A DNA stretch of 64,000 nt from Gammaproteobacteria bacterium (GCA_025359205.1 JANYHD010000039.1:80292-144291), one strand, 5' to 3'. Positions 9,036 to 61,925 are shown, counted from the stretch's first letter. Notes: generated by a model not told the origin, from the letters alone. A program made the numbers and translations.

Positions 9036-10553
9036 TCAGCCTGCGAGGAAAGTACGGTAAGCGGGATTCGCGGTTTCGTCGGTGTAGGGGTAACCCAGCT
9101 CGCGCAGGTGCCCGAGGAACAACTCTCGGTCGGTGCGTGGCACCTGGATGCCGGCCAGCACGCGCCCGCTGTCCGAGCCATGATTGCGATAGTGGAACAG
9201 CGAGATGTTCCAGTTCGTGCCGATCGCCTGCAGGAAGCCGAGCAGCGCGCCCGGGCGCTCAGGAAATTCAAAGCGGAACAGCATTTCATCTGCGACGCCA
9301 CTGCCCTTGCCGCCCACCATGAAGCGCACGTGGAGCTTGGCCATCTCGTTCGCGCTCATGTCGACCACGCCGTAGCCGGCGGCGCGCAACCGCGCCACCA
9401 CCGCCGCGCATTTTTCCTGGCCTTCGCGCAGCCCGAAGCCCACGAACAGCTGCGCACGCTCCGCACCCTGGTAGCGGTAATTGAACTCCGTGACGCTGTG
9501 CTGGCCGAGAGCGCCACAGAACTTGAGGAAGCTCCCGGGCTGCTCCGGCACTTCGACCGCCAGCAGCGCCTCGCGGCCGGCGCCGATATCCGCACGCTCG
9601 GCGATGTAGCGCAGCCGGTCGAAATTCAGGTTGGCGCCGCTGCTGATCGCGACGTAGCGCTGGCCCGCAGGCGCGCCGCGCGCCACATAGCGCTTCACGC
9701 CCGCGACCGCCAGCGCACCGGCCGGCTCGAGCACCGCGCGCGTGTCTTCAAACACATCCTGGATGGCCGCACAGATCTCGTCGGTGTTCACCAGGATCAC
9801 TTCGTCGACGTAGCGGCGCGCCAGCGCGAAAGTCTCCTCGCCCACGCGGCGCACCGCCACGCCATCGGCGAACAACCCGACACGCTCGAGCGTGACGCGC
9901 TGGCCAGCGCGCAGCGACTCGTACATCGCCGCGGCGTCCTCAGGCTCGACGCCGATGATGCGCACGCGCGGGTGGAGTTGCTTGACGTAGGCTGCGATGC
10001 CGGCGATCAGTCCACCGCCGCCGACCGGCACGAAGATCGCGTCGAGCTCGCCGCCGGTCTGGCGGATGATCTCGACGCCGATCGTGCCTTGGCCGGCGAT
10101 CACGTCCGGATCATCGAAGGGATGCACGAACGCCAGGTTCTGCTCGCGCGCAATGACCAGCGCATGCTCGAAGGCCGCATCGAAGATGTCGCCGTGCAAC
10201 ACCACTTCGCCGCCAAGGTCGGCCACCGCGCGCACCTTGATGTCGGGCGTGGTGCAAGGCATGACGATCACCGCGCGTACCTGGCGCTTGCGCGCCGCGA
10301 GTGCCACGCCCTGGGCGTGATTGCCGGCCGAAGCGGTGATCACGCCGCGCGCCGCCACGCTCGCGCCCAGGTGCGCGATCTTGTTGTAGGCGCCGCGCAG
10401 CTTGAAGGAAAACACCGGCTGCAGGTCTTCGCGCTTGAGCCGCAGCTCATGGCCCAGGCGCTGCGACAGGCGCGGCGCGTGATCGAGCGGCGACTCGATC
10501 GCCACTTCGTACACTCGGGCCGTCAGAATCCGCTGCAGGTAGTCGTCGCTCAT
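9036..10553 (-). CDS. ilvA: biosynthetic threonine ammonia-lyase (threonine dehydratase)
   Basis: 505 aa. PLP-lysine motif FSFKLRGAYN, GGGGLIAG loop, and two C-terminal ACT-like regulatory repeats. Confidence 0.95.
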   Translation of the reverse strand: MSDDYLQRILTARVYEVAIESPLDHAPRLSQRLGHELRLKREDLQPVFSFKLRGAYNKIAHLGASVAARGVITASAGNHAQGVALAARKRQVRAVIVMPCTTPDIKVRAVADLGGEVVLHGDIFDAAFEHALVIAREQNLAFVHPFDDPDVIAGQGTIGVEIIRQTGGELDAIFVPVGGGGLIAGIAAYVKQLHPRVRIIGVEPEDAAAMYESLRAGQRVTLERVGLFADGVAVRRVGEETFALARRYVDEVILVNTDEICAAIQDVFEDTRAVLEPAGALAVAGVKRYVARGAPAGQRYVAISSGANLNFDRLRYIAERADIGAGREALLAVEVPEQPGSFLKFCGALGQHSVTEFNYRYQGAERAQLFVGFGLREGQEKCAAVVARLRAAGYGVVDMSANEMAKLHVRFMVGGKGSGVADEMLFRFEFPERPGALLGFLQAIGTNWNISLFHYRNHGSDSGRVLAGIQVPRTDRELFLGHLRELGYPYTDETANPAYRTFLAG

Positions 10554-10590
10554 GAGGCGAAGCTTAAGGCATCGGCGCCGTGCCGTGCTC

Positions 10591-11892
10591 CTACTTGAGC
10601 AGGAAGCGGAAGGTCGTCTTGCCGAAGGTCACCAGGTCGCCGGGGTTGAGCTGGCGGCGCGCGACGCGCACGTTGTTCACGAACACGCCGTTGGTGCTGT
10701 CCAGGTCCTCGACCGTGGTGCCGCCCGCGGCGTTCAGCACCACGGCGTGGTGGCGGCTGATGTAGTCGGCGTCGATGCGCAGGTCATTGTCGGGCGTGCG
10801 ACCGACCGTGGTGCGGTGACCGAGCGCGTGCACGATGCCTTCATCCCCTTCGGTACGCACCAGGATGCGCTCGCGCGTGTCGGGTGTCGGCTCGCTACTC
10901 TCGAGGCGCGCCTGGCGCGCCGCCAGCTGCGCCAGCTCGCCCTCGCGACTGCGGATCAGGTCCTCGGCGGCCGCGAGGTCACCGCGCAAGGTCTCGTTGG
11001 CTGATTCCACGGTGCGCAGCTGCTCGCGTATCGTGTTCGCGACAGCCGTATGGTCGGCGAGATCGGCGTCGAGCAGTGCCACATGCCGTTGCGCCACCAG
11101 CGCCGCTGCCTGCGCCTCGTCAAGTTCCGCACGCGCGCGCCGCAACCCGGCCTCGAGCTCGTCCGCGCGTGTGAGCGCCGCCGCGCCATCCGTGATCAGC
11201 TGCTGCGTGTGTGCGTGGACCTGCTGGTCCTGCTGCGTCAGGCGCTGCTCCAGCGCTCGCTGCTGCTCGCGCTGTGCGGTCAGCTGCGCGGAAAGTTCGT
11301 CGGCCAGCTGTTCGCGCTCGCGCAGCATCGAATCGAAGATGTAGCGACGCCCTTCGGCGTGCCGCAGCGTTTCCTCGTGGCGCGTGACGCGGCGCTGCAA
11401 TTCGGCGAGGTCGGCCTGGCTGCGCTCCAGCGCCGCTTCCTGTCCGCCAGTTGCGCGCTGCACCTGCACCGGCGCCGGCGCCTGCGCGGACTGCGCAGCT
11501 TCCTGCTGTGCGCGTTGCTGCGTGAGCGCGGCCAGTTCCGCCTGCGACTGCTGCAGCTGCCTGCGCAGCTGCTCGCGCTGCGCGTCGCTCACGCGCAATT
11601 GCTCCGACTGCTCGCGCAGGCGTTGTTCGAGCTGCTGCAGGTTGGCGGTCGCAGCCGCCAGGTTGGCTTCGAGCTGCCGCCGGCTGCCGGTGACGGAGGC
11701 GAGGCTCGCACGCAGGCTGTCGATTTCCTCCTGGTGCGAGCGCAGCACGTCATCGAGCGGCGTAGCGCCCGGGACCTGCGGCACGGCCCAGGTGTCGGTG
11801 CCGGAGGAATCGGCGCCTGCGAGGCCAGGCATCTCCGCCGTGTCGTCCGGATCCGGAGGTGTGTGCAATGATCGGCGCTTATCGGTGCTCAT
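10591..11892 (-). CDS. FHA-domain protein with long Gln/Glu/Arg-rich coiled coil
   Basis: C-terminal FHA signature GRTPDNDLRIDADYISRHHAVV...STNGVFVNNVRV. The N-terminal ~330 aa are heptad-like and Q/E/A/L/R-rich. Confidence 0.85.
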   Translation of the reverse strand: MSTDKRRSLHTPPDPDDTAEMPGLAGADSSGTDTWAVPQVPGATPLDDVLRSHQEEIDSLRASLASVTGSRRQLEANLAAATANLQQLEQRLREQSEQLRVSDAQREQLRRQLQQSQAELAALTQQRAQQEAAQSAQAPAPVQVQRATGGQEAALERSQADLAELQRRVTRHEETLRHAEGRRYIFDSMLREREQLADELSAQLTAQREQQRALEQRLTQQDQQVHAHTQQLITDGAAALTRADELEAGLRRARAELDEAQAAALVAQRHVALLDADLADHTAVANTIREQLRTVESANETLRGDLAAAEDLIRSREGELAQLAARQARLESSEPTPDTRERILVRTEGDEGIVHALGHRTTVGRTPDNDLRIDADYISRHHAVVLNAAGGTTVEDLDSTNGVFVNNVRVARRQLNPGDLVTFGKTTFRFLLK

Positions 11893-11961
11893 GGCGCTTT
11901 CCAGTCTACGCGAAGCTCCGCCGGCCGGAATTGCCGCCGGTGCAAACTGCGATCTGCATGC

Positions 11962-12516
11962 TCATGCAGGCTTGGCGGCGCCGAAAAGCCCAATTAAGTC
12001 ATGCAGCTGTGCCGCCACTGCCTGGGCTGAGAGAGTCGCCTCGGCGGCCTGCGCCAGGCTCACTTCGCGCACCTCGAGGCCCTGCTGGCGCAAGCTATCG
12101 AGCGCGCGCGGCGGCGCCGCAGAGCAGGCCACGCGGCGCAGCAGTGCGCCCGGACGCAAGGCGGCCAGCGCCACGGCGACCTCCGCACCCTCGGCCTGCG
12201 CCAGCACGTCCACGCGCCGCTGACGCAACGAGTCGAGCAGATCAAGCAGCGCGAGCGCGTACTGTTCGTTACCGGATGGACCGATCGGGGCATCGGATTG
12301 GCCGTAGCCCGGCAGATCGGGCGCGTAGATCGAGCGATCGGCGCCCAGTGGCCCCAGCAATGGCTGAAAGAATCGTCCCTCGCCGGCCGCGCCCGGAATG
12401 CACAGCAGCGCCGTGGCCTCGTCGAAGCCCCCGCCCGGTGGAATCGCCTGGTGCACGTGCAGCTGCCCGTAGCGGCAGTCAAAATAAGTGCGCCGCAGCC
12501 GCGCCGCAGGCCTCAC
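11962..12516 (-). CDS. truncated, nucleophile-less alpha/beta-hydrolase-fold protein
   Basis: N-terminal half of the fold is present (CIPGAAGEGRFFQPL..APDLPGYGQSD). The nucleophile elbow reads VLAQAEGAEVA instead of GxSxG, and the protein ends after 184 aa. GTG start with a GTGA overlap to the upstream gene. Confidence 0.6.
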   Translation of the reverse strand: MRPAARLRRTYFDCRYGQLHVHQAIPPGGGFDEATALLCIPGAAGEGRFFQPLLGPLGADRSIYAPDLPGYGQSDAPIGPSGNEQYALALLDLLDSLRQRRVDVLAQAEGAEVAVALAALRPGALLRRVACSAAPPRALDSLRQQGLEVREVSLAQAAEATLSAQAVAAQLHDLIGLFGAAKPA

Positions 12517-12887
12517 TGGCGATCACCGCAGTCGGCGTGCAGGCGGTGCAGAAAGCGGTGCACGAGCGGCGCGGCAATGACGCCAGCGATCGCCAGCACC
12601 GCGATGCCGGAGAACAGCGCATAGCTGCCGGCGAAGATCTTGCCGGCGGTGGTGCCCGGCGAGGCCAGCGGTCCCATGCCCGAGAGGATCATCGCTGCAT
12701 TCTCGTAGGAGTCGATCCACGACAGGCCGACGAGATAGTGATACCCAAGCATGCCCGCGTACAGCGCGACGACGATGAACACCAACCCGATGCCGATGCT
12801 GCGCAATTGCCGGCGCAGATAATCGGGAAACCGCGCGACCGGCTGCGAAATGTGTTCGTACCCTGCTGCATTCTTTCTTGCTGCCAT
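12513..12887 (-). CDS. small integral membrane protein (3 predicted helices)
   Basis: Start placed at MAARKNAAGY (ATG 12887) because the longer ORF (to 13100) would overlap the divergent Omp85 gene. Hydrophobic helices IGIGLVFIVVALYAGML and FAGSYALFSGIAVLAIAGVIAAPLV. Confidence 0.6.
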   Translation of the reverse strand: MAARKNAAGYEHISQPVARFPDYLRRQLRSIGIGLVFIVVALYAGMLGYHYLVGLSWIDSYENAAMILSGMGPLASPGTTAGKIFAGSYALFSGIAVLAIAGVIAAPLVHRFLHRLHADCGDRQ

Positions 12888-12999
12888 GACCTGCGACAAC
12901 TCTCCGCGGCGCTGCGCCGATGGCAAATCATAGGCCAAGCGGCGCAACCGATGTAGTTTGATTGACGCTGGCTCCCGCACAATGGTCACATAGCCGGCA

Positions 13000-14673
13000 A
13001 TGGGAATTTCGCGCGCGCCGTTGTTCGCCGTGTCGTTGCTGCTGGCCGCCGGCGCCGCAGCTGCGCTGGTGCCCGGTGCGCCCGACTTCGCCACGGTCAA
13101 GGATCACTCCGTACTTCCGGACGACGCGGCGCTCGAAGCCGCCGGCGCGCGCATCGGCCAGATCACCATCCGCAGCGCCGAGATCTTCGATCTCAGTGAT
13201 CCGCGCGAGAACCGGAGCCTCTACCGCGTCGCCAACCGCTGGCACATCAACACGCGCGCGGGAGTGATCCGCGCGCAGCTGCTGTTCCGCAGCGGCGAAC
13301 CCTACCGCCACCGGCTGCTGGAAGAGACCGAGCGCAAGCTGCGGCAGCTGAATTTCCTGCGCGAACCGCGCATCCGCCCGCTTGGGTACCACGACGGCGT
13401 GGTCGACATCCTGGTCGAGACTCACGATGTGTGGACACTTCAGCTCGGCCCGAGCTACGGGCGGCGCGGTGGCAAGAACGACACCTCGCTGGAGTTCCAG
13501 GACCACAACCTGCTCGGCTTCGGCAAGACTCTGATCGCCGGCAGCAGCCAGGGAGTGGACCGCAATTCCACCTATTTTGAATGGCGTGACCCTGCCGTGT
13601 TCGGCGGCCGCTGGATCGACTCGCTGCGCTGGGCCAACAACAGTGACGGCCGCGACTGGCGCGTGCAGCTGGCGCGTCCTTTCTACGCGCTCGATGTGCG
13701 CTACGCGGCCGGCCTGACGCTGGCGGACAGCAAGGGCGAGGACACGCGCTACCTGCTGGGCAGCGAATACGACCGCTATCAGCACTCGGCACGGCTGCTG
13801 GACGTTTTGGCAGGCTGGTCGGCGGGCCTGCGCGCCGGCCATGTGCTGCGCCTCTCCGCCGGCTGGCGTGAGGAACGCGATGCCTTCGGCGCGCTCTATG
13901 CGGGCGCACCGCCGCTGCCCGTCACGCTGGCGCCGCTCCCCGCCGATCGCGATCTCGTCTATCCCTATGTGCGCGCCGAATGGCTCACGGACCAGTTCCA
14001 CACCACCCGCAATCAGGACCTCATCGCGCGTACCGAGGACCTGACTTTTGGACTGGCCGCTACGCTGCAGCTGGGCCTCGCGAGCCCGGCATTCGGTGCG
14101 GATCGCCGCGCCTGGGTATTTGCGGCGCGCGCCGACTATGGCTGGGAACTGTCCAGCCGCCAGCAGCTATACGCCGGCGCCGGACTGAGCGGCCGTAGCG
14201 AACAGCGCGGCGCTGTCGATCGGCGCACCAGCGCCGACCTCGCCTGGTACTGGCGCACCTCGCGCCGCACGCTCACCCACGTGCGGATCAGCGGCGATGC
14301 CGGGCACGCGCTCGACCTCGATCACTATTACCAACTGGGCGGCGACAATGGCCTGCGCGGCTATCCGCTGCGCTACCAGTTGGGCGATGCACGCGCCCAG
14401 CTCAAGATCGAGGAACGCGTCTACACCGACTGGTCGCTGTGGCGCCTGTTCAATATCGGCGGCGCTGCATTCTTCGACGCCGGCCGCACGTACGGCAGCA
14501 ATCCCATTGGCGTGCCGCAGCTGGGCTGGCTGCGCGATGTGGGCATCGGGCTGCGCCTCGGCAACGATCGCTCGTCGCTCGGCAACGTCATCCACATCGA
14601 CCTGGCCACGCCGCTCAATGGCGAGCATCTCAGCCGGCTGCAGTTCCTGGTGAGTACCGAAGCGACCCTCTGA
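13000..14673 (+). CDS. Omp85/BamA-family outer-membrane protein (POTRA + surface-antigen beta-barrel)
   Basis: Signal peptide MGISRAPLFAVSLLLAAGAAAA, a POTRA-like N-terminus, alternating beta-strand pattern, and C-terminal ..LQFLVSTEATL. Confidence 0.8.
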   Translation: MGISRAPLFAVSLLLAAGAAAALVPGAPDFATVKDHSVLPDDAALEAAGARIGQITIRSAEIFDLSDPRENRSLYRVANRWHINTRAGVIRAQLLFRSGEPYRHRLLEETERKLRQLNFLREPRIRPLGYHDGVVDILVETHDVWTLQLGPSYGRRGGKNDTSLEFQDHNLLGFGKTLIAGSSQGVDRNSTYFEWRDPAVFGGRWIDSLRWANNSDGRDWRVQLARPFYALDVRYAAGLTLADSKGEDTRYLLGSEYDRYQHSARLLDVLAGWSAGLRAGHVLRLSAGWREERDAFGALYAGAPPLPVTLAPLPADRDLVYPYVRAEWLTDQFHTTRNQDLIARTEDLTFGLAATLQLGLASPAFGADRRAWVFAARADYGWELSSRQQLYAGAGLSGRSEQRGAVDRRTSADLAWYWRTSRRTLTHVRISGDAGHALDLDHYYQLGGDNGLRGYPLRYQLGDARAQLKIEERVYTDWSLWRLFNIGGAAFFDAGRTYGSNPIGVPQLGWLRDVGIGLRLGNDRSSLGNVIHIDLATPLNGEHLSRLQFLVSTEATL

Positions 14674-14678
14674 TCACT

Positions 14679-14716
14679 GCTGCGACTGCAGGCTGAAGCT
14701 GCGACCGCAGGCTGAA
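14679..14716. repeat. 19-bp tandem direct repeat x2 (GCTGCGAC[T/C]GCAGGCTGAA) between convergent genes
   Basis: Read directly: 14679-14697 and 14698-14716 differ at one base. Each copy contains the CTGCAG-type half-palindrome. Confidence 0.9.
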
Positions 14717-14725
14717 ATCGCCTCG

Positions 14726-17700
14726 CTAGGTACTGTGCGCCGCGGCCACCCATCGCCGCCACTGCCGCACGTCATTCAGGTCGCGCACGGCCGCCACCGG
14801 CGAGTCGAGCAACGCGGCGCTCTGCCTGAGCAGCTCCGCGGCATGCGCAGGTTCGGTCAGCGCCTGCGCGTACAGCGCACTTGCCAGGTCTACCGGCACC
14901 CACTGATCGCCGTGGTTCTTCGCCGCCAGCTCGCGGCGGAACTGCACAACGGGCCTGATCAGGTTCGCCGCTTCCGCCAGTCTTCCCTGTCGCGCTACGG
15001 CCATCGCCAGCCAGGTGGTTACCTCGCCGAGGTCGCGCCGATCCGGTATGGCCTGCGTGCCCCAGATCTTGCGCGAGGACAGCGCCGCGCGCATGGCCCT
15101 CTCGGCGGCGGCATAGTCACCCTGCCCGTAGGCGGCGCGACCGGCTATGAACTGGGCAAAGTACAGATTGCCGTAGGTCTGCGAAATCTCGAAGCTCCCG
15201 CTTGGCTTGATGCTGTGGAATTCGCGCTCGGCATCTTCTGCGGATCGGCGCGCGCCGGCGAAATCCCCGCGTTCCAGTGCAATCACCGCCGCGCCGACCT
15301 GGCCAAGCGCCGTGGTGATCACCAGCGATATGCCCTCTGGCCGGGCCTGCTTGCGCAGTTTCTCCAGGTAGAGCCCGCCGCTGGCCAGCGTCGATTCCGC
15401 TCCTGCCAAATCGGCCAGCTGCGCTTGCCGGAATGCTGTGCCGAGCACATCAAATGCCCGGATCATGAAGAACCCCGAACCGCCTACTGTGGCGTGACCA
15501 TAGTCTTCGAGTGAAGTCTGGTAGGCCGCAATCGCCTCGCGGAGCCTGCCGGCCGCCCAGTACGCATCACCCAGGGTCTGCCGTGCGACGCCAAGATTGT
15601 TCATGCTCGTGGTGCTGTCGGGGTCGAGTTTCAGCAGCGTCACCGATACCTGTTCGCCGCGCTGCTGGACGCGCACGGCCTCCAGCGGATTCAGGTCGTT
15701 CTGGGCGACGCTGGCCAGGCCACTCAATATGACCTGCTGCGCGTGCAGCGCGATGCGGTAACCGGGCCGCTGTTCGAGCACCTTGTCGCCGAGCGCCACG
15801 GCAGCTTCGCCGAATTGCCTGGCCTGCTCGTTGCGACCAAGGTTGATGAGCCCGCCCACCAGCCAGGCGCCTGCCTCCGCGTGGAAGGCCGCCATGTTCA
15901 GGTCGCGCAGATCCAGTGCGCCCAGCTCTTCGGCATAGTGCTGCGCCTTGCTGGCCGTGCGCACGGCGTCCTCGTTCTGCAGGCCGGCCCACTGTTCGTA
16001 GCTCTTCCGCACCAGCACTTCGACGTAGGCACGGCGTGCCGCCGCGGATGCGTCGGGCATCTCCGCGAGCGGCCGCAACAGTTCCGCGGCACGGCTCCCG
16101 GCAAGCGGGCCGCCGGGATCGTTGCTGTTGTCGAGTACCTGGGCCCTGGCCGTGTTGGCCAGCGCCAGCGCAATGATCGTGGCCTCCGATTCGTCACCGG
16201 CGGCCCGTTGCTGTTCAAGCAGGCCGATCGCCTCGTTGGCACTGGCGCCCGCGGCGCGCAGATCGCCGAGCACGCGTTTCGCGCGCGCGTAGTGCACCAT
16301 CGCCAGCGCGCCGTTGCGAACCGTCTCCGGTCCCTTAAGCGCCTGCGGCAACCCATGGAAATAGTCGATCTGGCGCTGGGTGAATTCGGCCACCACATTG
16401 AGGCGGCCGAAGCTCTCGAGCTCGCGCACAAAATCGTCGGTGAGGTACCCCAGCAGGTGCTCGGAACCCGCGCGCGCCTGTTCGGCCACCTGTTCGGCGC
16501 GATGCGCCCGCTGGCGGCTCAGATAGGCGATGCCCGCCGCCACGATCGCGCCGGCAGCCAGCAGTACGCACACCGCAGCTACCTGGCGGGCGCGCACCAG
16601 CGCGCGACGTGCAGACTGCTCGCGCGCGCGCTGCTCCGCCAGCATGCGCTCGGTGGCCTCGCGTGCCTCACGCTCCTTGCGCTGGTCGCGGCTGCTCATC
16701 ACCACGCTGCACAGCACGTCGTGCGTGAGCTCGACGCGGCGCGCATCCAGCCGCTCCTCGATGCGCAGCAGGCGGCGATTGACCAGCAGCGCCACCGTAC
16801 CAGGCACGGCTCCGGCAGCGGCAAAGTCGCCGGCCAGGCGCTCTTCGGCAATGTTCTCGCGGTAACCCGAGGCCGTCAGCAACTCGTCCTCGATGATGCG
16901 CCGCACGGCTGCGGGCTGGTCGGCCAGCGCGCGTTCGTAAAAATTGCTGAGGATCGAAGCGTGCGAGCCTGCCAGCAGGTCAAGGGAAATTTCGCTGCGG
17001 ACCTGCGCGATGCGCGCGTCGTTGAGCTCGCGGCAGATCAGGCTGAGGAGCGAGGGTTCGACCTCGGCGTTGGCCAGCTCCGCGCCGCCGGCCACGAAGC
17101 GCACGATGGCTCCAGCCACCTCCTCGGACACCAGTCCCTTGCCCGGCCGCATGACCGCGGTCAGGGCCTGTACGCCCGTCATGGGCGCGAGACGCAAGCG
17201 ATTCTGCGTGATGCTGGGCATCGCCGCCTTCAGGCCCTCGAGCGGCGCCAGGTAATCCTCGCGCAGCGCAATCAGCACGCGATAGTCGCCGCGCGCAAAA
17301 TCAAAGCGCTCGGCCAGGGTATCGTCCGCCTCCAGCCGCTGCTCCACCGCCTTGGGCGCGCGGTTCTCGACGAGGTCGGCCAGGTCCGCGATAAAGGTCG
17401 CGGCCCGCGCGCGGCCGAAATCATCGCTCTGCGCCAGCGTGAAGATTTCCTCGAACTGGTCGAAGATCAGCAGCGGAATGAGCGTCTTGCCCACCTCGTC
17501 GCGCAGCACGTCGTCGCGATGATGCAGGTATTCCCACAGCGATTCGCCCGCAGCCGCCACGCCGACTCGCGTCCACTCGCCGGCGCGGCGCGCGCTGCGC
17601 GCGATCGCCTGCTTGATCTGCTCGGCTGGCTCCGGCGCGTCACGGCCGTAGTCGACGCGCACGTACACCGGGCAATAGCCCTGTTCGCGCAGGCGCGGCA

Positions 17701-17926
17701 CCAGGCCAGCGCGCAGTGTCGAGGTCTTGCCCAGGCCCGACTGGCCGAACAGCACCGTCAGGAGCTTGCGCTGCACGCGGCGCGCGAGCTCGGCCACTTC
17801 CTCGTCACGGCCGTAGAAATAGGCGCGGGTTTCCTCGGTGAACGAGGCCAGGCCCAGCCACGGATTGCGCTCGTCGATCGTCGGTTCGCCCGCATCGGCG
17901 GCGGGAATGGCCGGCAACGCGTTCAT
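14726..17926 (-). CDS. nSTAND-type P-loop NTPase with hydrophobic helix and C-terminal TPR-like repeat domain
   Basis: ATG 17926 overlaps the upstream stop (ATGA). Motifs: FYGRDEEV..LFGQSGLGKTS (Walker A, nt 17720-17746), LLIFDQFEE (Walker B, 17447-17473) and VELTHDVL. These are followed by a charged coiled coil, the helix VAAVCVLLAAGAIVAAGIAYL (16520-16582), and ~590 aa of Ala/Leu-rich TPR-like repeats. The ORF is open to 18127, but that extension overlaps the upstream gene. Confidence 0.8.
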   Translation of the reverse strand: MNALPAIPAADAGEPTIDERNPWLGLASFTEETRAYFYGRDEEVAELARRVQRKLLTVLFGQSGLGKTSTLRAGLVPRLREQGYCPVYVRVDYGRDAPEPAEQIKQAIARSARRAGEWTRVGVAAAGESLWEYLHHRDDVLRDEVGKTLIPLLIFDQFEEIFTLAQSDDFGRARAATFIADLADLVENRAPKAVEQRLEADDTLAERFDFARGDYRVLIALREDYLAPLEGLKAAMPSITQNRLRLAPMTGVQALTAVMRPGKGLVSEEVAGAIVRFVAGGAELANAEVEPSLLSLICRELNDARIAQVRSEISLDLLAGSHASILSNFYERALADQPAAVRRIIEDELLTASGYRENIAEERLAGDFAAAGAVPGTVALLVNRRLLRIEERLDARRVELTHDVLCSVVMSSRDQRKEREAREATERMLAEQRAREQSARRALVRARQVAAVCVLLAAGAIVAAGIAYLSRQRAHRAEQVAEQARAGSEHLLGYLTDDFVRELESFGRLNVVAEFTQRQIDYFHGLPQALKGPETVRNGALAMVHYARAKRVLGDLRAAGASANEAIGLLEQQRAAGDESEATIIALALANTARAQVLDNSNDPGGPLAGSRAAELLRPLAEMPDASAAARRAYVEVLVRKSYEQWAGLQNEDAVRTASKAQHYAEELGALDLRDLNMAAFHAEAGAWLVGGLINLGRNEQARQFGEAAVALGDKVLEQRPGYRIALHAQQVILSGLASVAQNDLNPLEAVRVQQRGEQVSVTLLKLDPDSTTSMNNLGVARQTLGDAYWAAGRLREAIAAYQTSLEDYGHATVGGSGFFMIRAFDVLGTAFRQAQLADLAGAESTLASGGLYLEKLRKQARPEGISLVITTALGQVGAAVIALERGDFAGARRSAEDAEREFHSIKPSGSFEISQTYGNLYFAQFIAGRAAYGQGDYAAAERAMRAALSSRKIWGTQAIPDRRDLGEVTTWLAMAVARQGRLAEAANLIRPVVQFRRELAAKNHGDQWVPVDLASALYAQALTEPAHAAELLRQSAALLDSPVAAVRDLNDVRQWRRWVAAAHST

Positions 17927-19311
17927 TGCTGCCGCGCCCGCATGAAGTCCCGCAGCCGCTCGGAAAAGCCGGCCGGCACCTCGCCACCGGGCAACTGCGT
18001 GATGTGCAGGGCGCGGAACTTTTCGGGCACCTGGGCCCGCGCCGCGTCGGTCCCGTCGATGGCCACCGGCAGGATGAACAGCGCGCCATCGGCCATGTTG
18101 CGCGCGCGGTCGATGGCGTAGCTCCACTCGCGGCGGAAGTAGCCTTCCAGGCGTCGCTGCGTGGTGGCCGAGACCACCGGTATGAAATACGAACAGCGCG
18201 CGATATTGCGCTGGATCATGCGGTCGTAGTCATCACCGCTCTCCAGCCGATCCATGTCGAACCAGGTGGTGACGCCGGCGGCTTCGAGGCTGGCCTTGAT
18301 CTTTTGCACGGCCGGCAGGTCTTCACGCGCGTAGCTGATGAACACAGCGTTGTCCGGCATCTCGCGCGCCGGCGGCATGAAGCGCAGCGGTGCGGACGTT
18401 TGGGTCGCGGCGGTGGCCGGCCTGCGACGTGCGGCCAGGCGATCGTGCAGTTCGTCGACGAAGCGCTCGGCGCCCTGGTAAATGCGCGTACGCACGCTGA
18501 CCTGCTGCAGAAAGGACACCAGCCGCTCGTCTTCGCTAGTGTGATCGTCGGCCATGATCTCGCCCACGTCGCGTGGATCGGACAGTCGCTGCCGCTTGGC
18601 CATACGCAGGAACAGGCGCGCCAGCCAGTTGGTGAAGTTGCTGCCGATGAACAGCAGGTGATTGTGCTCGAGCTCGTGGAACAGCTTTTCCGGCGCCAGG
18701 TGCTCGCTCTGCAGCGCGCAGATGAATTCCAGCAGATCCTCGTCGGAGATCACGTAGGTAGGTGAAGCAGACACCCGGCCAAACAGGTGATAGACCACCG
18801 GCCGCTGCAAGCGATCGCGCTCGCTCGGCAGGTCGGCAATGCGGTTCGGCGAATAGGAGAGCACTTCGGTCGTGGGCGCGCCGGCGAAGCGCGCGCTGTT
18901 GATCGCGTTCTCCAGCAACGGATCGAAGGTCGTGGACACGAACAGGTCGAACTCGGGTATGGCCGCGAGCCGCTGCAGCGCCCGTGGCGGCTCGAAGCTC
19001 GCTTCCTTGAGTATGCTGCGCAGGCGTACGTAGGCTTCTTCGCGCCGGCCGCGTGCGCCCAGGAACCAGCAGACCACGTCGTTGAGCGTGTAAGGTTTCG
19101 GCAACAGGCTGACGTCGACGTTCAGCCGCACCGCGAGCTTCTCCGCGAGCCAGTCGTACAGCAGCCGCGGACCCTTGTCGGTGCTGACCTGCAGCAGCTC
19201 AGGACCGATGATCGGAATGACGCGCCGCTCTTCGATGAAGCTGAGCAGGTCGTCCCACGCGTCGTCGTCGAGCGCGCTGGTCTGCAGCAGGGCGGTGGCG
19301 CTGGTGCTCAA
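17923..19311 (-). CDS. SIR2-like (SIR2_2-type) / TIR domain fusion protein
   Basis: The N-terminal ~270 aa carry the SIR2_2-like motif series VIPIIGPELL, FVSTTFDPLLENA, VVYHLFGRV and LLFIGSNFTNWLARL. The C-terminal ~135 aa are TIR_2-like: AVFISYAREDLPAVQKIKASLEAAGVTTWFDMDRLESGDDY..CSYFIPVVS..RREWSYA. The start is uncertain: TTG 19311 was chosen (MSTSATALLQ..), with alternatives TTG 19329 or TTG 19452. Confidence 0.8.
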   Translation of the reverse strand: MSTSATALLQTSALDDDAWDDLLSFIEERRVIPIIGPELLQVSTDKGPRLLYDWLAEKLAVRLNVDVSLLPKPYTLNDVVCWFLGARGRREEAYVRLRSILKEASFEPPRALQRLAAIPEFDLFVSTTFDPLLENAINSARFAGAPTTEVLSYSPNRIADLPSERDRLQRPVVYHLFGRVSASPTYVISDEDLLEFICALQSEHLAPEKLFHELEHNHLLFIGSNFTNWLARLFLRMAKRQRLSDPRDVGEIMADDHTSEDERLVSFLQQVSVRTRIYQGAERFVDELHDRLAARRRPATAATQTSAPLRFMPPAREMPDNAVFISYAREDLPAVQKIKASLEAAGVTTWFDMDRLESGDDYDRMIQRNIARCSYFIPVVSATTQRRLEGYFRREWSYAIDRARNMADGALFILPVAIDGTDAARAQVPEKFRALHITQLPGGEVPAGFSERLRDFMRARQQ

Positions 19312-19525
19312 GTGATGGCGTCGAGGCAATCGATAGAATTCATTAAGTAAAACCAGTGTACGGGGCCGGCCCCGCTCCCCCTTTGATTGGACGTACTGAT
19401 CGCGTCCGCGCCCGCGTCGATCGAGTTTGCCGCAGCCCCGGAACACAAGCAAGGCAAGGCCGGAACTTCATGACCCACCCGTGGTCGCATGAACCGGTTG
19501 CGATTGAAGCTCACGCGGCCGCATA

Positions 19526-20212
19526 TTGCGGCCTCACCAGGGGCGGCGGTGCAGCGTGCGATCACCCGTTGAGCACAGGATCTCGCGCCGCGTCGCGCTG
19601 CTCGCCGTCATCGGCCTGCATCTGTTGGGCGGCCTGCTGATCAGCAGCGCGTTCCATGCATCGCGAACTCCGCAACCGGCCGGCCCAGCGATGGTATGGC
19701 TAGGCTGGTCGGATTCAGGCGTGGTGAAATCTCTGCGCGCACCGCCACTGCGGCCGCAGCCGCGCATTCCACCTGCCGCGATTGCGAGCGCACTCGTTCC
19801 ACTGCTTCCCGTCCCACTGCTTCCTGCAGCGCCTGCCCCCGCAAGGCCCGCAACCAACTGGAGCCTGGAAGCGCAGCGGGCAGCCGCGATAGTGATCACC
19901 CATTCCGCGGCGGACCAGCAACGCGACGGGGTGATGGGATCTATCCCAAAGTCGCCGTTCAGGACAAGCAGCGCAGGGCCCGCATTTCCGTGGTCGCGCG
20001 AACCGCTCGGCAAACACTTCGACGCGGACCCGCACACCGGGATCGTCAGCCTGCGCGGCAAACGCTGCTCGCTCGCGCTCTTCCTGATCCTGCCTGGCTT
20101 CGGCTGCGCCTTCGGCCCGCTCGATCCCGAACCCGGCCGCGGCGACCTGTTCGACCCCAAGTATCAACCTCAACCGCTCGAGCTCCCGGACTCGCTCGCC
20201 ACGGTGCACTGA
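19526..20212 (+). CDS. hypothetical membrane-anchored Pro-rich protein
   Basis: N-terminal basic stretch plus the helix VALLAVIGLHLLGGLLISSAF, then a Pro-rich region. Third-position GC is somewhat lower than in neighbours. The start is ambiguous (TTG 19526 or a downstream GTG). Confidence 0.45.
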   Translation: MRPHQGRRCSVRSPVEHRISRRVALLAVIGLHLLGGLLISSAFHASRTPQPAGPAMVWLGWSDSGVVKSLRAPPLRPQPRIPPAAIASALVPLLPVPLLPAAPAPARPATNWSLEAQRAAAIVITHSAADQQRDGVMGSIPKSPFRTSSAGPAFPWSREPLGKHFDADPHTGIVSLRGKRCSLALFLILPGFGCAFGPLDPEPGRGDLFDPKYQPQPLELPDSLATVH

Positions 20213-20289
20213 CGCGCCCGCGGACATGCTTGAATTCTGTGCTACGCGGACGACTCTGGATTTTCCGCGTGTGCTTTAGCGCCTGCGCC

Positions 20290-59199: not shown

Positions 59200-61365
59200 T
59201 CAGTCCGCAACTTCAATGGTGACCGAAGTGGCCGCCCAATCTGCAGGTGCGGCCGCCGGATCATGAGCCGCTGGATCGGCCACGGTCGTGATGCCGCGCG
59301 TAGCCAGGCCCGCGAGTTCCCCGCGCAGCGTGCCCAGATCCTCTGGAATGCCGCGGGTCTGCACGTTGCCCCGGCTCTGGTTCGCCAGCTGCTGCAATGA
59401 GCGGATGCGCCGTCGAATCGTTTCGGCCGTGGCCAGGTCGGTGCTGGCGAACACGCGCACCGTGTCGGTGCCGCGCGGTGGACTGTAGTCCCAATGGAAG
59501 CCGGCGCGATTTCCGGTCTGCAGCGAATCGGGAATCAACACCCGTTCGCCGGCGCGGACCGCCCCGTTGGGGTAGAAATCCCGCTGCTGGTAGTCGTTGG
59601 GGAACAGCACGTTCATGCTCCCCTCGGGATCGACATCGACGATGGTGATATAGGCATCGGCATTCACGCCGATGTCCAGTTGCAGGCTGTTTTGCGCGCT
59701 GCGCGCTTCCTCCTGATGGCGGCTGTGCAGTTGCGCCGGTCCGGTGGCCGTGACCAGGCGGATGTCACGTGTGTCCACAGGTTGAGCACCCGCGACGCGC
59801 ACGCTCACGACCAGTTGTGACGAGGGGTTGTCGAGCGTCAGCAGCTCGGCGGCCTTGGCTGAGCGCGAGGCGACGCGCGCCAGGTCGGTGGCGGATTTGT
59901 CGTCGCCCAGCACGAAGCGTCCCATGACGCGCAGGCCGTCGGCGCTCAACAGCCGCACCGTCTGACCCTGCAGATCGACGAGAAAACGCGCGGGCTGATC
60001 GGCGGCCACCAGCACCAGGTTTTTGATGTTGCGCCGGAGCGTGCTCTCGATGCGGCTCCGGTCCGCCGCAGGCATCTCGAGGATGTGTATCGCGACGCGC
60101 GACACGGAAGGCGCAGGCATCAGGGCCACGGCACGCGATTCAGCCTCGATTGCGCCGGTCTGGTTCGTTAGGCTGGCGCGCGCATCCTTACCCGCAAGCT
60201 GCGTCACCGTGGCGACCGCCAGCGCCTGCCCGGGGGCGAACTGCCGCTCGCCACGTCGATAGATCGCCCAGCTCGAGCCCGGCGTGGCGCCGAGCAGCAC
60301 ACCGTTGATGAGCGTGACCTGACCCGCCGCAGACGGCGCGACGCTGAGCCACGCGAGGCGCGGCCCCGGTTCCGCGCTCACCGCACCAGCCGCCGACGCG
60401 GGCGCGGATGCGAGTGCAGCGAACAGCGGCAGATCCAGCGCTTCCGGTGGCGCTTCGAGTTGTGGCTCCGGCATCGAGGTACGGCCGAAGCTCGTCTGTA
60501 TGCGCCCAAGCTCGCGGGTCACGGCGGCGAAGACTTCGCGCGGCGACGCACTGCTGCCCGCGGTCGTGAAAGCGCGCGACAGCGCATAAGTGAAGAAGCC
60601 GTGGAAATTGCCGTCGACCGGTCCGTCCAGTGCCTCTTCGTTGGCGGCCGCGCCCCCCATGACCACAAAGCGCGAACTCCTGAGAGGCACGATGCCGCGC
60701 GTGGTGATGCCAGTCACGCCCGCCCGGTACAGATCGATGCGCATGTCCTGCGGCACCGAGCGGGCACGAATGTCGATGGCGCGCGTCGCGGTGCCGGAAT
60801 GGCAGGAGTCGAGCACGATCACGACGCTGCGCGCGCGCAAGCGCGAGAAGATCGCGTCGAGCTCGTCATCGACGATATCCGGCACATTGCCGCTGCGCCC
60901 GTCCTGGGGAACTATGGTCTCGTCCAGGCCATCGTCCTCGTCGCCGTTCAGGTCCTGAACCTGCGAGCCATGGCCGGAATAGTGGAAGTAGACCGTGTCG
61001 TCGGGCCCGGATTCCTGCACCAGCTGATTGAGTGCCGCCAGCATCTTTTCGCGCGTGGCACCCTCATCGGTAAGCATCTTGATATTGCCCGCGGCAAAAC
61101 CCCAGCGCGTGGTCAGAATTTCACGCATGGTCTCGACGTCGTTCACCGAGCCCTGCAGGCCGGGTACCGCTTTGTAATGATTGATGCCGATCAGCAGCGC
61201 ACGCTTGACGCCAGCGGCCGGCGCCGCGCCTACCTGGGCGCCAGCGACGCCGATCAGGCCAACGTACAGCAGCACGCACATGGCGGCATAGCGCTGGAGC
61301 GAATGTCTCGTGTTCCTGACGCGCATTGCCCGGATTGAGTCGACGTGCAAACGACCAGGGTTCAT
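59200..61365 (-). CDS. secreted caspase-fold (peptidase C14, orthocaspase-like) protein with C-terminal DUF4384-like domain
   Basis: ATG 61365 forms an ATGA overlap with the upstream stop. Signal/anchor AAMCVLLYVGLIGVAGA. Motifs RALLIGINHY, His motif YFHYSGHGSQ (H codon 60970-60972), and Cys motif VIVLDSCHSGT (C codon 60802-60804). The C-terminal DAYITIVDVDPEGSMNVLFPN..RAGERVLIP..TDTVRVFAS spans 59443-59691. Confidence 0.85.
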   Translation of the reverse strand: MNPGRLHVDSIRAMRVRNTRHSLQRYAAMCVLLYVGLIGVAGAQVGAAPAAGVKRALLIGINHYKAVPGLQGSVNDVETMREILTTRWGFAAGNIKMLTDEGATREKMLAALNQLVQESGPDDTVYFHYSGHGSQVQDLNGDEDDGLDETIVPQDGRSGNVPDIVDDELDAIFSRLRARSVVIVLDSCHSGTATRAIDIRARSVPQDMRIDLYRAGVTGITTRGIVPLRSSRFVVMGGAAANEEALDGPVDGNFHGFFTYALSRAFTTAGSSASPREVFAAVTRELGRIQTSFGRTSMPEPQLEAPPEALDLPLFAALASAPASAAGAVSAEPGPRLAWLSVAPSAAGQVTLINGVLLGATPGSSWAIYRRGERQFAPGQALAVATVTQLAGKDARASLTNQTGAIEAESRAVALMPAPSVSRVAIHILEMPAADRSRIESTLRRNIKNLVLVAADQPARFLVDLQGQTVRLLSADGLRVMGRFVLGDDKSATDLARVASRSAKAAELLTLDNPSSQLVVSVRVAGAQPVDTRDIRLVTATGPAQLHSRHQEEARSAQNSLQLDIGVNADAYITIVDVDPEGSMNVLFPNDYQQRDFYPNGAVRAGERVLIPDSLQTGNRAGFHWDYSPPRGTDTVRVFASTDLATAETIRRRIRSLQQLANQSRGNVQTRGIPEDLGTLRGELAGLATRGITTVADPAAHDPAAAPADWAATSVTIEVAD

Positions 61366-61925
61366 GGCGGCGCGAGTTCGAGCGTCAGCAGCACATCGCG
61401 GCGCGCGCGGGCCGCAGCGAGTTTCTCGCCAAGCTGCCGTGGATCGGCCGTTGGCAGCTCGATCACGTAGCCGCCGGTCGGCGTGGGGCCGTCGACGATG
61501 CGGGCGCCGAGCACGCCCAGCAGATCGCGAATCTGCGCAGCCGTTGCCAGCGGCTTGAACGCCACGCGCAACCGGGTCGCATGCGTTGGCAGCGCGCGCG
61601 TCGTCACCGCGGCAGTTGGGTTCGTCTGGTCCGGCAACAGGTAAAGCAACGCGGCTCCCTGAACGAGAATCAGCAGCATCGCTGCGGCCGGCGCCCAGCG
61701 CGGCACCAGCGGCGCGCGCAGCCACGCCGACAGCTGCGCCAGCAAGCCCACACGATTGTCCGATTGCTGCGCGTGGATGTGCCTGAGCACGGCAACTCTG
61801 ACACGCGGCGCTGGCCCGGGCTCGGCATCAAAGGCAGCGCGAATCGCACGCTGCAAGTCTTGCATCGACGCGAACTCGCCGGACTCCGGGTCAGTGCCTG
61901 GCGGCGGTTGCCCGGACGCGTTCAT
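61362..61925 (-). CDS. single-pass membrane protein, putative anti-sigma factor
   Basis: Positioned between the ECF sigma and caspase genes with 4-nt overlaps on both sides. TM WAPAAAMLLILVQGAALLYLL. No HxxxCxxC zinc motif. Confidence 0.55.
   Translation of the reverse strand: MNASGQPPPGTDPESGEFASMQDLQRAIRAAFDAEPGPAPRVRVAVLRHIHAQQSDNRVGLLAQLSAWLRAPLVPRWAPAAAMLLILVQGAALLYLLPDQTNPTAAVTTRALPTHATRLRVAFKPLATAAQIRDLLGVLGARIVDGPTPTGGYVIELPTADPRQLGEKLAAARARRDVLLTLELAPP

Follow-up and report, generated by a model that had tools for sequence, protein, structure and literature searches.

Which kind of system is encoded by two overlapping genes, of which one joins a SIR2-like and a TIR domain in a single protein and the other specifies a STAND NTPase followed by a long repeat region? 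The question is raised by a minus-strand locus in a 64-kb stretch of DNA, here called the window, for which the initial annotation had proposed a pair of sensor and NAD-processing effector. The features of the locus are as follows.

17923..19311, minus strand: gene 1, 462-aa SIR2-like/TIR fusion protein; TTG start, TGA stop within the ATGA overlap (ORF and Pfam)
18421..19269, minus strand: SIR2-like domain of gene 1, residues ~15-297, defence-sirtuin fold (profile alignments, column counts in 65 homologues, Foldseek)
17929..18354, minus strand: TIR domain of gene 1, residues ~320-461, with Glu E395 (codon 18127-18129) (Pfam TIR_2, alignments, conservation)
17923..17926, minus strand: ATGA stop/start overlap coupling both genes (sequence; also in L001 and L002)
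14726..17926, minus strand: gene 2, 1066-aa protein with nSTAND1 NTPase, transmembrane helix and TPR-like solenoid (ORF and Pfam)
16622..17863, minus strand: nSTAND1 NTPase module of gene 2, residues 22-435 (Pfam nSTAND1, motifs in 61 partners)
16517..16582, minus strand: single transmembrane helix of gene 2, residues 449-470, VAAVCVLLAAGAIVAAGIAYLS (hydrophobic helix, charge bias)
14729..16402, minus strand: C-terminal TPR-like alpha-solenoid of gene 2, residues ~509-1066, probable sensor (AlphaFold2, Foldseek, divergence)

Both open reading frames and their overlap, as originally described, were confirmed from the sequence: positions 17926-17923 read cagcaATGAacg, and the TGA of gene 1 shares 4 nt with the ATG of gene 2. 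The 4-nt overlap is also present in the called genes of the related loci L001 and L002. With the TTG at 19311 as its start gene 1 encodes 462 aa, its relatives being 450-474 aa long (mostly 460-462), and in P0015 the homologous position is occupied by an ATG. The two genes are real and conserved, because 4324 proteins match gene 1 at E ≤ 1e-5 and at least 1373 clusters (50% identity) do so at E ≤ 1e-30. The GC content of the pair (0.65-0.69) is the same as that of the remainder of the window, and the neighbouring genes are ilvA, those for an FHA protein and an alpha/beta hydrolase, and ilvIH. Mobile-element flanks around the pair were not found, nor was any tRNA in the 64-kb window, in agreement with the reported absence of integrase, transposase and tRNA; the codon positions given earlier for E395 and H175 (18787-18789) are also correct.

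Among GTDB species representatives the gene 1/gene 2 family occupies at least 396 loci. The proposed coupling to the NTPase neighbour holds among homologues. In 81 of 82 loci, spread over Pseudomonadota, Verrucomicrobiota, Acidobacteriota, Thermodesulfobacteriota and Eremiobacterota-type MAGs, gene 1 is followed immediately downstream on its own strand by an nSTAND1 gene, and the cultured Paraburkholderia caribensis MBA4, with a relative of 28% identity, shows this arrangement too. Gene 1 and the NTPase module have diverged in lockstep (r = 0.95; mean difference 0.0 ± 2.3 identity points; 46 loci), and P0206 is annotated as a single polypeptide nSTAND1 + SIR2_2 + TIR_2.

The C-terminal domain of gene 1 is a TIR_2 domain, as had been called, with a Pfam match over residues 323-441 (E 2e-19, 70.7 bits against a cut-off of 28). 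It is closest to enzymatically active TIRs, namely SPARTA TIR-APAZ, PdTIR, AbTIR, SARM1/tir-1 and Cat1, and profile matches to the first three have E-values of 1e-9 to 1e-11. The Glu singled out initially, E395, aligns to E77 of SPARTA TIR-APAZ and is invariant in 65/65 homologues together with F324, S326, Y327, D352, G359 and S381. Gene 1 therefore possesses both the TIR fold and a conserved Glu at the catalytic position, a feature of enzymatic TIRs, and because E395 is invariant the TIR domain is likely to be the sole enzyme of the protein. The least probable of the readings considered here is that the TIR is not enzymatic and serves as an adaptor or a SLOG-like nucleotide receiver, activity residing in a non-canonical SIR2 or an unlinked effector. 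This would be consistent with the superposition of the whole gene 1 protein on ThsA (SIR2 + SLOG) over ~530 columns (Foldseek E ~4e-12) and with the lack of an obvious third effector gene in most loci, the window included. The invariance of the Glu and its surrounding motifs argues against it, as do the sequence profiles, which match TIR enzymes and not SLOG proteins, and the SIR2-like domain, whose catalytic residues are missing.

The SIR2_2 call in gene 1 is likewise upheld by Pfam (residues 123-257, E 3.4e-13, 50.3 bits against a cut-off of 24.5) and by structure, the AlphaFold2 model of the protein (pLDDT 92.4) having ThsA, Avs5, KomC and DSR2 as its best Foldseek matches. Such a defence-type fold, found next to a TIR_2 domain that also exceeds its Pfam threshold, agrees with the model of the initial annotation, in which the NTPase, a cytoplasmic sensor, switches on an effector whose SIR2 and TIR are both active, and so causes NAD+ depletion. 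So do the retained nucleotide-binding-motif residues G36, D130 and G178 (G223 is also retained), and a His, H175, kept in 12/12 members of A3, the subfamily of the window's own gene 1. The catalytic positions are, however, against it. These were aligned using BcThsA, SeThsA and KomC as templates (ThsA 6lhx/8bto/7uxt, KomC 9v0g), and conservation was taken from column counts over 65 diverse homologues. In the profile alignment N112 of ThsA falls on T128 of gene 1, and both H152 of ThsA and the catalytic H146 of KomC fall on F177. Position 128 is Thr in 52, Ser in 5 and Asn in only 4 of the 65 homologues, and position 177 is Leu (30), Phe (25) or Met (10) and His in none of the 65. The SIR2_2 fold is present and the canonical catalytic Asn and His of defence SIR2 NADases are missing; judged from the alignments, both are lacking family-wide, and the claim of two active NAD-processing enzymes in one polypeptide is not supported. 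H175, earlier taken as the SIR2 His for mutagenesis, sits two residues ahead of the canonical sirtuin position, aligns to K150 of ThsA and is His in only 43/65 homologues. It may be a shifted catalytic His in the A3 subfamily; being distinct from the canonical one, it gives way in the mutagenesis plan to E395 of gene 1 and K67 of gene 2 as the relevant residues. An effector with two active domains under a cytoplasmic sensor is accordingly rated very unlikely, the more so as the transmembrane helix of gene 2 speaks against a purely cytoplasmic sensor. Since defence SIR2 domains build filaments in ThsA and Avs5, the SIR2-like domain is more likely an oligomerisation or docking scaffold than a second NADase; another possibility is that it binds NAD/ADPR and has a regulatory role.

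Gene 2 begins with the NTPase. The initial assignment to nSTAND and TPR-like modules was right, Pfam nSTAND1 (PF20703) matching with E 3.9e-32 and 112.8 bits (cut-off 27.1) over profile positions 1-370 of 379. Walker A (G61-S-G-L-G-K67-T-S69) and Walker B (D156-Q-F-E-E160) are intact and identical in 61/61 partner proteins, and all NTPase residues listed, including R222-E-D224, R243 and the MHD-like T401-H-D403, are kept in 59-61 of them. Together with the exceeded curated threshold, the STAND-type helical/winged-helix extension and the superstructure-forming repeats at the C-terminus, this places the protein among the nSTAND1 NTPases. The hydrophobic helix that follows had been noticed before, and its existence stands; what had been missed is its transmembrane nature and its presence at the equivalent place in 61/61 full-length partners. 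The 15 residues before the helix carry a net charge of +3.9 and the 15 after it one of +1.3, a positive-inside bias, and the helix is a single transmembrane segment that is conserved.

The remainder of gene 2 was modelled as an all-alpha solenoid of ~13 helix pairs (AlphaFold2 of residues 444-1066, pLDDT 92.6), for which Foldseek returned TPR superhelices, while Pfam TPR matches at residues 750-1005 were all under the gathering score. When each is compared with relatives, the solenoid falls on average 37 identity points short of the NTPase; its best homologue anywhere is 63% identical, and in relatives WD40 or WD40+Ank repeats take the place of TPR. Because the transmembrane helix separates the NTPase from the solenoid, the repeat sensor probably lies outside the cytoplasm, most plausibly in the periplasm. 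A point against this topology is that WD40 and ankyrin repeats of the canonical kind are rarely extracytoplasmic.

About one third of the related loci add further genes: SLATT-like/PGDYG genes are found in 9 loci and TPR-S+Guanylate_cyc genes in 18, so that candidate receivers occur in 27 related loci. The SLATT-like membrane protein comes with a PGDYG partner. In Thoeris VII and VIII canonical cADPR made by the TIR is received by SLATT and TPR-containing effectors (bioRxiv 10.64898/2025.12.03.692087), and by analogy the TIR output is probably read by the added receiver gene in this third of the loci. No SLATT- or TPR-S-type receiver gene was detected in the 64-kb window, which has the core pair only.

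A cyclase-type accessory gene could also suggest a messenger relay that regulates physiology, and it is conceivable that the periplasmic repeats sense an envelope or environmental cue and signal through STAND to a TIR messenger with no killing of the cell. Such a non-immune role is in line with the six gene-called contexts, which are mostly metabolic or housekeeping and not of the defence-island kind (the window, L001, L002 and L083-L085 included; that of L083 has two additional TIR-TPR genes). The cytoplasmic parts are 83-95% identical among more than 100 clusters and highly conserved within Steroidobacteraceae-type genomes, as would befit a stable physiological function, and the family had no match in 50,697 phage records and one distant match only in 72,556 plasmids. 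On the other hand, the sensor changes very quickly in sequence, and TPR, WD40 and Ank repeats replace one another in it; Pseudomonadota and Opitutaceae copies are ~70% identical, which implies recent horizontal transfer; the position and orientation of the pair differ among close relatives; and some genomes carry several copies (L054 and L057 in one MAG, tandem paralogues in L013). Among relatives there are fusions to a caspase domain or to an additional TIR domain; like the SLATT-like pore partners, these are typical of conflict systems. A non-immune role is on these grounds unlikely.

The reading we prefer, with confidence slightly better than even, is that of a two-component conflict signalling module. 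Gene 2 would be a single-pass inner-membrane STAND switch with its nSTAND1 NTPase in the cytoplasm, the solenoid beyond the membrane serving as a rapidly diversifying, probably periplasmic ligand sensor. Bound ligand would make the NTPase modules exchange nucleotide and oligomerise, and this would cluster the separately encoded, translationally coupled gene 1 protein. Once clustered, the TIR domains could assemble into active sites for NAD+ cleavage, in the manner of plant TNL resistosomes, SARM1, SPARTA and TIR-SAVED, the output being NAD+ depletion, a cADPR-type signal or both; in some loci this output would be read by a receiver, either the SLATT-like membrane protein with its PGDYG partner or the TPR-S-cyclase protein. 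The conflict is most probably with phages or competitors, a trigger that we infer.

A more tentative and rather doubtful generalisation is that such pairs are widespread bacterial transmembrane pattern-recognition receptors, in which a hypervariable periplasmic TPR/WD40/Ank ectodomain acts through STAND on a TIR carried by a dead-sirtuin scaffold, with SLATT pores or nucleotide cyclases taking up its cADPR-type product. If true, a TLR-like outside-in logic would be built on an NLR-like switch and act before the invader enters the cytoplasm, and the threats perceived could include phage adsorption or ejection proteins, bacteriocins, contact-dependent effectors or predators. If confirmed, the pair would serve as a tractable bacterial model of outside-in sensing in immunity or conflict, would show the SIR2 fold put to new use as a scaffold or regulator without catalysis, and would connect STAND switches with cADPR signalling of the Thoeris type via optional SLATT and TPR-S receivers.

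How does the pair compare with known systems? The earlier statement that no defined system matches agrees with PADLOC-DB v2, in which gene 2 has no match at E ≤ 0.1 and gene 1 has TIR-piece matches only, those to ThsB models being weak and partial (E 3e-4 and 0.013). Our literature search found no published description of a SIR2-TIR/nSTAND1 gene pair. Conflict systems centred on nSTAND1 have been predicted computationally (Kaur, Burroughs, Iyer, Aravind, eLife 2021, PMC8195603). They have in common with the present pair the NTPase clade, a TIR-type NAD-targeting effector and C-terminal TPR/WD40 repeats, and differ in that the pair has a separate overlapping effector gene and no Death-like or EAD adaptor; term searches of that article gave neither a SIR2-TIR fusion nor an nSTAND1-linked transmembrane segment. 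In the family described here a membrane anchor is inserted between switch and sensor, and the partner of the switch is a TIR enzyme joined to a sirtuin domain devoid of catalytic residues.

The Avs proteins known to us each consist of one cytoplasmic polypeptide in which the SIR2 is active. The pair described here, in contrast, is split into two proteins; its SIR2 is devoid of the catalytic Asn and His, it has a TIR in addition, and a transmembrane helix stands between NTPase and sensor. A STAND switch controlling an NAD-directed effector is shared with Avs5 (SIR2-STAND; PDB 9jap, 9nc9; Mol Cell 2026, PMC12931631), whose SIR2 fold, of the defence type, ranks with the best structural matches of gene 1. 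The pair would be expected to be activated as Avs is, through oligomers or filaments. Membership in Avs/AVAST was rejected in view of the separate effector gene, the intervening helix and the PADLOC result for gene 2.

Thoeris type I also combines SIR2 and TIR in one system (ThsA plus the TIR protein ThsB), and ThsA (SIR2-SLOG) resembles gene 1 over its full length, both having a SIR2 at the N-terminus and a Rossmann-like domain at the C-terminus. Gene 1 instead has a C-terminal TIR with the catalytic Glu in place of the SLOG receiver and a degenerate SIR2, and its STAND NTPase partner is lacking in Thoeris. Assignment to Thoeris was discarded as well: the adjacent gene encodes a STAND NTPase, the 64 kb hold no receiver and the ThsB models fit poorly. 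As to the related loci, the 9 with a SLATT/DUF4231-like membrane protein by the TIR gene recall Thoeris VII (TIR + SLATT ThsH), and the 18 with a TPR-S-containing enzyme recall Thoeris VIII (TIR + TPR-containing ThsI), although the enzyme fused to TPR-S is a nucleotide cyclase and not a CMP hydrolase. The window differs from both types in having neither receiver, and its TIR protein has a SIR2-like domain and a STAND partner.

In plant TNLs oligomerisation of the STAND (NB-ARC) module assembles TIR NADase sites, and TLRs combine an extracellular repeat sensor, one transmembrane helix and cytoplasmic TIR signalling. Both are conceptual analogues of the pair, with no common descent of the architecture implied, and they differ from it in two respects: the TIR of the pair belongs to a separate protein, and its NTPase stands between membrane and TIR. 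STAND-plus-TIR immunity is known from plants, animals and bacteria, and the bacterial examples known to us, Avs and bNACHT, detect their triggers inside the cytoplasm. The gene pair appears to be an uncharacterised variant of STAND-plus-TIR conflict systems.

Two open reading frames (ORFs) on the minus strand fill the window from 14726 to 19311, and the initial annotation had described their sequence correctly, down to the codon positions of E395 and H175 in gene 1. The SIR2_2, TIR_2 and nSTAND domains it recognized were borne out by Pfam profile matches, and gene 2 belongs to nSTAND1 as this class is defined.

17923-19311, minus strand: gene 1, 462 aa, TTG start
Gene 1 residues 123-257: SIR2_2 (Pfam E 3.4e-13)
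Gene 1 residues 323-441: TIR_2 (Pfam E 2e-19)
17926-17923, minus strand: ATGA in the sequence, gene 1 stop overlapping gene 2 start
14726-17926, minus strand: gene 2, 1066 aa
Gene 2 residues 22-435: nSTAND1 (Pfam E 3.9e-32)
Gene 2 G61-x-S-G-x-G-K67-x-S69: Walker A, essentially invariant
Gene 2 D156-Q-F-E-E160: Walker B, essentially invariant
Gene 2 R222-E-D224 and R243: NTPase motifs, essentially invariant
Gene 2 T401-H-D403: essentially invariant, recalling the MHD motif of NB-ARC proteins
Gene 2 residues 449-470: hydrophobic, uncharged helix VAAVCVLLAAGAIVAAGIAYLS

The related contigs L001 and L002 show an identical 4-nt overlap between their called genes. Gene 1 relatives are almost all 460-462 aa long, and in one database homologue, P0015, the corresponding start codon is ATG. 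The GC content of the pair is unremarkable. The initial annotation had proposed that lack of a match to a defined defense system would speak for novelty; in PADLOC gene 2 matches nothing, and gene 1 matches through its TIR part only, to components of different systems (Ago-associated TIR, PDC-S66, SAVED-TIR and ThsB).

Proteins with the SIR2-TIR architecture form a large family. Gene 1 is matched by at least 1373 clusters (50% identity) at E<=1e-30; nearly all of the top 150 are full-length proteins of 440-480 aa. A scan with a 12-sequence alignment confirmed at least 396 relatives in GTDB species representatives. The 80 retained loci are spread over Steroidobacteraceae, Usitatibacteraceae, Casimicrobiaceae and other Burkholderiales, Rhodanobacteraceae, Lysobacteraceae, Opitutaceae, Acidobacteriaceae, Holophagae, Methylococcales, Nitrosomonas, Thermodesulfobacteriota and Baltobacteraceae. 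Copies in Opitutaceae (Verrucomicrobiota) are approximately 70% identical to the window protein, implying horizontal transfer. The proposed coupling of the two genes was upheld, as in 81 of 82 loci gene 1 is directly followed, in the same orientation, by the nSTAND1 gene; the exception stops at a contig edge. The same gene order occurs at 28% identity in cultured Paraburkholderia caribensis MBA4 (NZ_CP012748.1, 370055-387356, with the distant homologue at about 378-380 kb), where a weak TPR-S-like match lies upstream of the pair and the PLSDB record carries no annotation. Across 46 loci, gene 1 and the NTPase module show closely matching identities (r = 0.95, mean difference 0.0 +/- 2.3 points), while the domain following the membrane helix is on average 37 points lower; the compared sequences are distant enough for synonymous sites to be saturated. 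The closest database relative of that domain is 63% identical vs. 95% for gene 1, and WD40, WD40 plus ankyrin or canonical TPR repeats make up the sensor of more remote loci. Two loci occur in one MAG, and NTPase paralogues stand in tandem at one locus. Fusions among the database proteins comprise nSTAND1+SIR2_2+TIR_2 (P0206, which could be a gene-call or frameshift artifact), caspase+SIR2_2+TIR_2 (P0236) and TIR+SIR2_2+TIR_2 (P0197). On seven long-read MAG contigs (L025, L027, L031, L049, L061, L063, L064) the NTPase gene is truncated or split across frames, reflecting possible sequencing frameshifts or real pseudogenization. At L062 (4596-8834) the SIR2-TIR match extends only to residue 289, with the NTPase gene upstream on the opposite strand, an apparent rearrangement with its breakpoint inside gene 1.

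Over its full length the AlphaFold2 model of gene 1 (pLDDT 92.4, pTM 0.78) is most similar to ThsA (E ~4e-12), followed by Avs5 (SIR2-STAND), KomC and DSR2; as modeled, the SIR2-like fold is that of a defense sirtuin. A single-sequence search of PDB sequences with gene 1 returned TIR domains and no SIR2 match, and alignment of the SIR2 part required a family profile built from 22 diverse N-terminal halves, which reaches ThsA (6lhx, 8bto, 7uxt) and KomC (9v0g). In all four alignments T128 is the counterpart of the TTNYD Asn (ThsA N112, which is Ala in 8bto) and F177 that of the K-x-H-G His (ThsA H152), with high posterior probabilities at both motifs. The KomC His aligned to F177 is presumably the residue altered in the H146N entry 9xvc. 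Among 65 full-length homologues (36-51% identity), position 128 is Thr in 52, Ser in 5 and Asn in 4, position 177 is Leu in 30, Phe in 25 and Met in 10, never His, and the GAG loop is cut down to G36-x-E/D38. These residues make enzymatic activity of the SIR2-like domain improbable. The initial annotation had proposed H175 as the SIR2 His to mutate; this residue corresponds to ThsA K150, is conserved as His in no more than 43 of the 65 homologues, and is not the canonical His, whose position is F177. Since H175 is invariant in the 12 closest subfamily members, a shifted catalytic His keeps some slight possibility there. That both halves of gene 1 process NAD, as first suggested, is nevertheless distinctly improbable with T128 and F177 at the catalytic positions.

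The TIR domain, on the other hand, looks active. Its profile matches are enzymatic TIRs (SPARTA TIR-APAZ, PdTIR, AbTIR, tir-1/SARM1 and Cat1), E395 aligns with E77 of SPARTA TIR-APAZ (numbered by residue count of the alignment), and E395, F324, S326, Y327, D352, G359 and S381 are invariant in 65/65 homologues. By predicted fold and Glu, gene 1 belongs with the catalytic-type TIRs; a non-enzymatic TIR is very improbable in view of this invariance and of these matches.

Gene 2 is predicted to be a single-pass membrane protein. A like helix is found at the equal position in 61/61 full-length partner proteins from other genomes, with a net charge of +3.9 in the 15 residues before it vs. +1.3 in the 15 after. 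The nSTAND1 NTPase module has to be cytoplasmic, which would place the C-terminal domain beyond the membrane. The AlphaFold2 model of residues 444-1066 (pLDDT 92.6, pTM 0.88) consists of one long helix (membrane segment plus stalk) and then approximately 13 helix pairs, and its Foldseek matches are generic TPR superhelices, including periplasmic LbcA and a Campylobacter periplasmic motor scaffold. The description of these repeats as TPR-like is thus supported by the model, whereas TPR matches in Pfam stay below threshold.

All that goes beyond the anatomy of the pair we infer. An extracytoplasmic ligand would bind the solenoid, upon which the STAND module would exchange nucleotide and oligomerize; the partner protein would be clustered via its degenerate SIR2-like domain, allowing the TIR domains to form active sites that cleave or cyclize NAD+, and the product would be read by downstream receivers, where present. 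We consider this mechanism as a whole slightly better than an even chance.

Possible receivers are seen in relatives. Overlapping spurious ORFs of the high-GC DNA made all-against-all clustering of the neighboring ORFs noisy, and two recurrent accessory families were retained from it. In nine loci the NTPase gene is directly followed by genes for a PGDYG protein and for a DUF4231/SLATT_1-like protein of 345 aa, the latter with three hydrophobic helices (L001 and, in the same arrangement, L003, L005, L013, L025, L033, L052, L060 and L065). In 18 of 82 loci, and also in L084 and L085, a TPR-S + Guanylate_cyc protein of 630-700 aa is adjacent; TPR-S was reportedly defined by Burroughs and Aravind in J Bacteriol in 2020.

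L001 14670-16167, same strand, after the NTPase gene: PGDYG (~150 aa) and DUF4231/SLATT_1-like (345 aa)
L014 12324-14405: TPR-S + Guanylate_cyc
L029 5990-8104, minus strand: TPR-S + Guanylate_cyc
L084 6410-8425, minus strand: TPR-S + Guanylate_cyc
L085 13353-15242: TPR-S + Guanylate_cyc

The middle region of the TPR-S-cyclase protein has, by eye, a GxxxSGAD-type Rossmann-like motif and could be a nucleotide-binding module. The 1.13-Mb contig L083 encodes two more TIR_2 + TPR proteins (13238-15163 and 16179-17915, minus strand) within 6 kb of a SIR2-TIR/nSTAND1 pair. According to a 2025 preprint, SLATT effectors of Thoeris VII and TPR-containing effectors of Thoeris VIII respond to canonical cADPR from TIR partners, and its authors equate the Thoeris VIII TPR domain with the domain for which Burroughs and Aravind predicted a part in TIR signaling (10.64898/2025.12.03.692087). 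Such neighbors support a signal-producing TIR in the SIR2-TIR family. No PGDYG, SLATT-like or TPR-S-cyclase homologue was found within the 64 kb, so that a third effector gene was rejected for the window and its output would be NAD+ depletion itself or pass to an unlinked receiver.

The window is chromosomal DNA of an ordinary kind (pyruvate carboxylase, gshA, acs, priA and ilv genes), the pair being flanked by ilvA, an FHA protein, an alpha/beta hydrolase, ilvI/ilvH and a GGDEF-EAL protein. The absence of a neighboring tRNA, noted at first, extends to the whole window, and no flanking repeats, Rfam families, promoters or terminators beyond chance were detected around the pair.

13000-14673, plus strand: 557-aa ORF convergent on the NTPase gene, signal-peptide-like N-terminus, weak Omp85 match (E 0.004)
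19526-20212, plus strand: 228-aa ORF in the ~1-kb gap upstream of gene 1, hydrophobic helix and proline-rich stretch
59200-61725, minus strand: 841-aa protein, caspase domain (Peptidase_C14, E 3e-27) + DUF4384

The first two ORFs were rejected as parts of the system, ORF and DNA being absent from all 82 related loci; the 228-aa ORF, with no Pfam match, may not be a real gene. The caspase protein is another conflict-system-type gene, unlinked to the pair. The two convergent stop codons leave a gap of 52 bp, within which a 19-nt unit is duplicated in tandem in perfect register (14679-14716, GCTGCGACTGCAGGCTGAA / GCTGCGACCGCAGGCTGAA, repeat family D15). Compared with L002 (1.67-Mb contig, 9731-14629), window positions 12862-20289 have collinear flanks and an inverted two-gene cassette, with no inverted or direct repeats flanking it to explain the inversion; segments 12862-14725 and 19312-20289 are missing from L002 and unmatched in any related locus. 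With L001 carrying the pair at a different place, a strict core gene pair fixed at one locus was rejected. The six gene-called contexts read are mostly metabolic, the phage collection gave no match, and the plasmids gave a single, distant one. This is atypical for a classic defense-island system and keeps alive a physiological, non-immune signaling pathway, which we regard as unlikely.

Our literature search retrieved no paper describing a SIR2-TIR + nSTAND1 pair, and the pair falls outside Thoeris, Avs and the active SIR2 NADases as these are defined. Its closest described kinds are the computationally predicted nSTAND1 conflict systems (PMC8195603), Avs5 with its SIR2-STAND architecture, and Thoeris, in which ThsA resembles gene 1 in shape and types VII and VIII resemble the accessory genes of the relatives. 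The likeness to plant TNLs and Toll-like receptors would be a conceptual one only.
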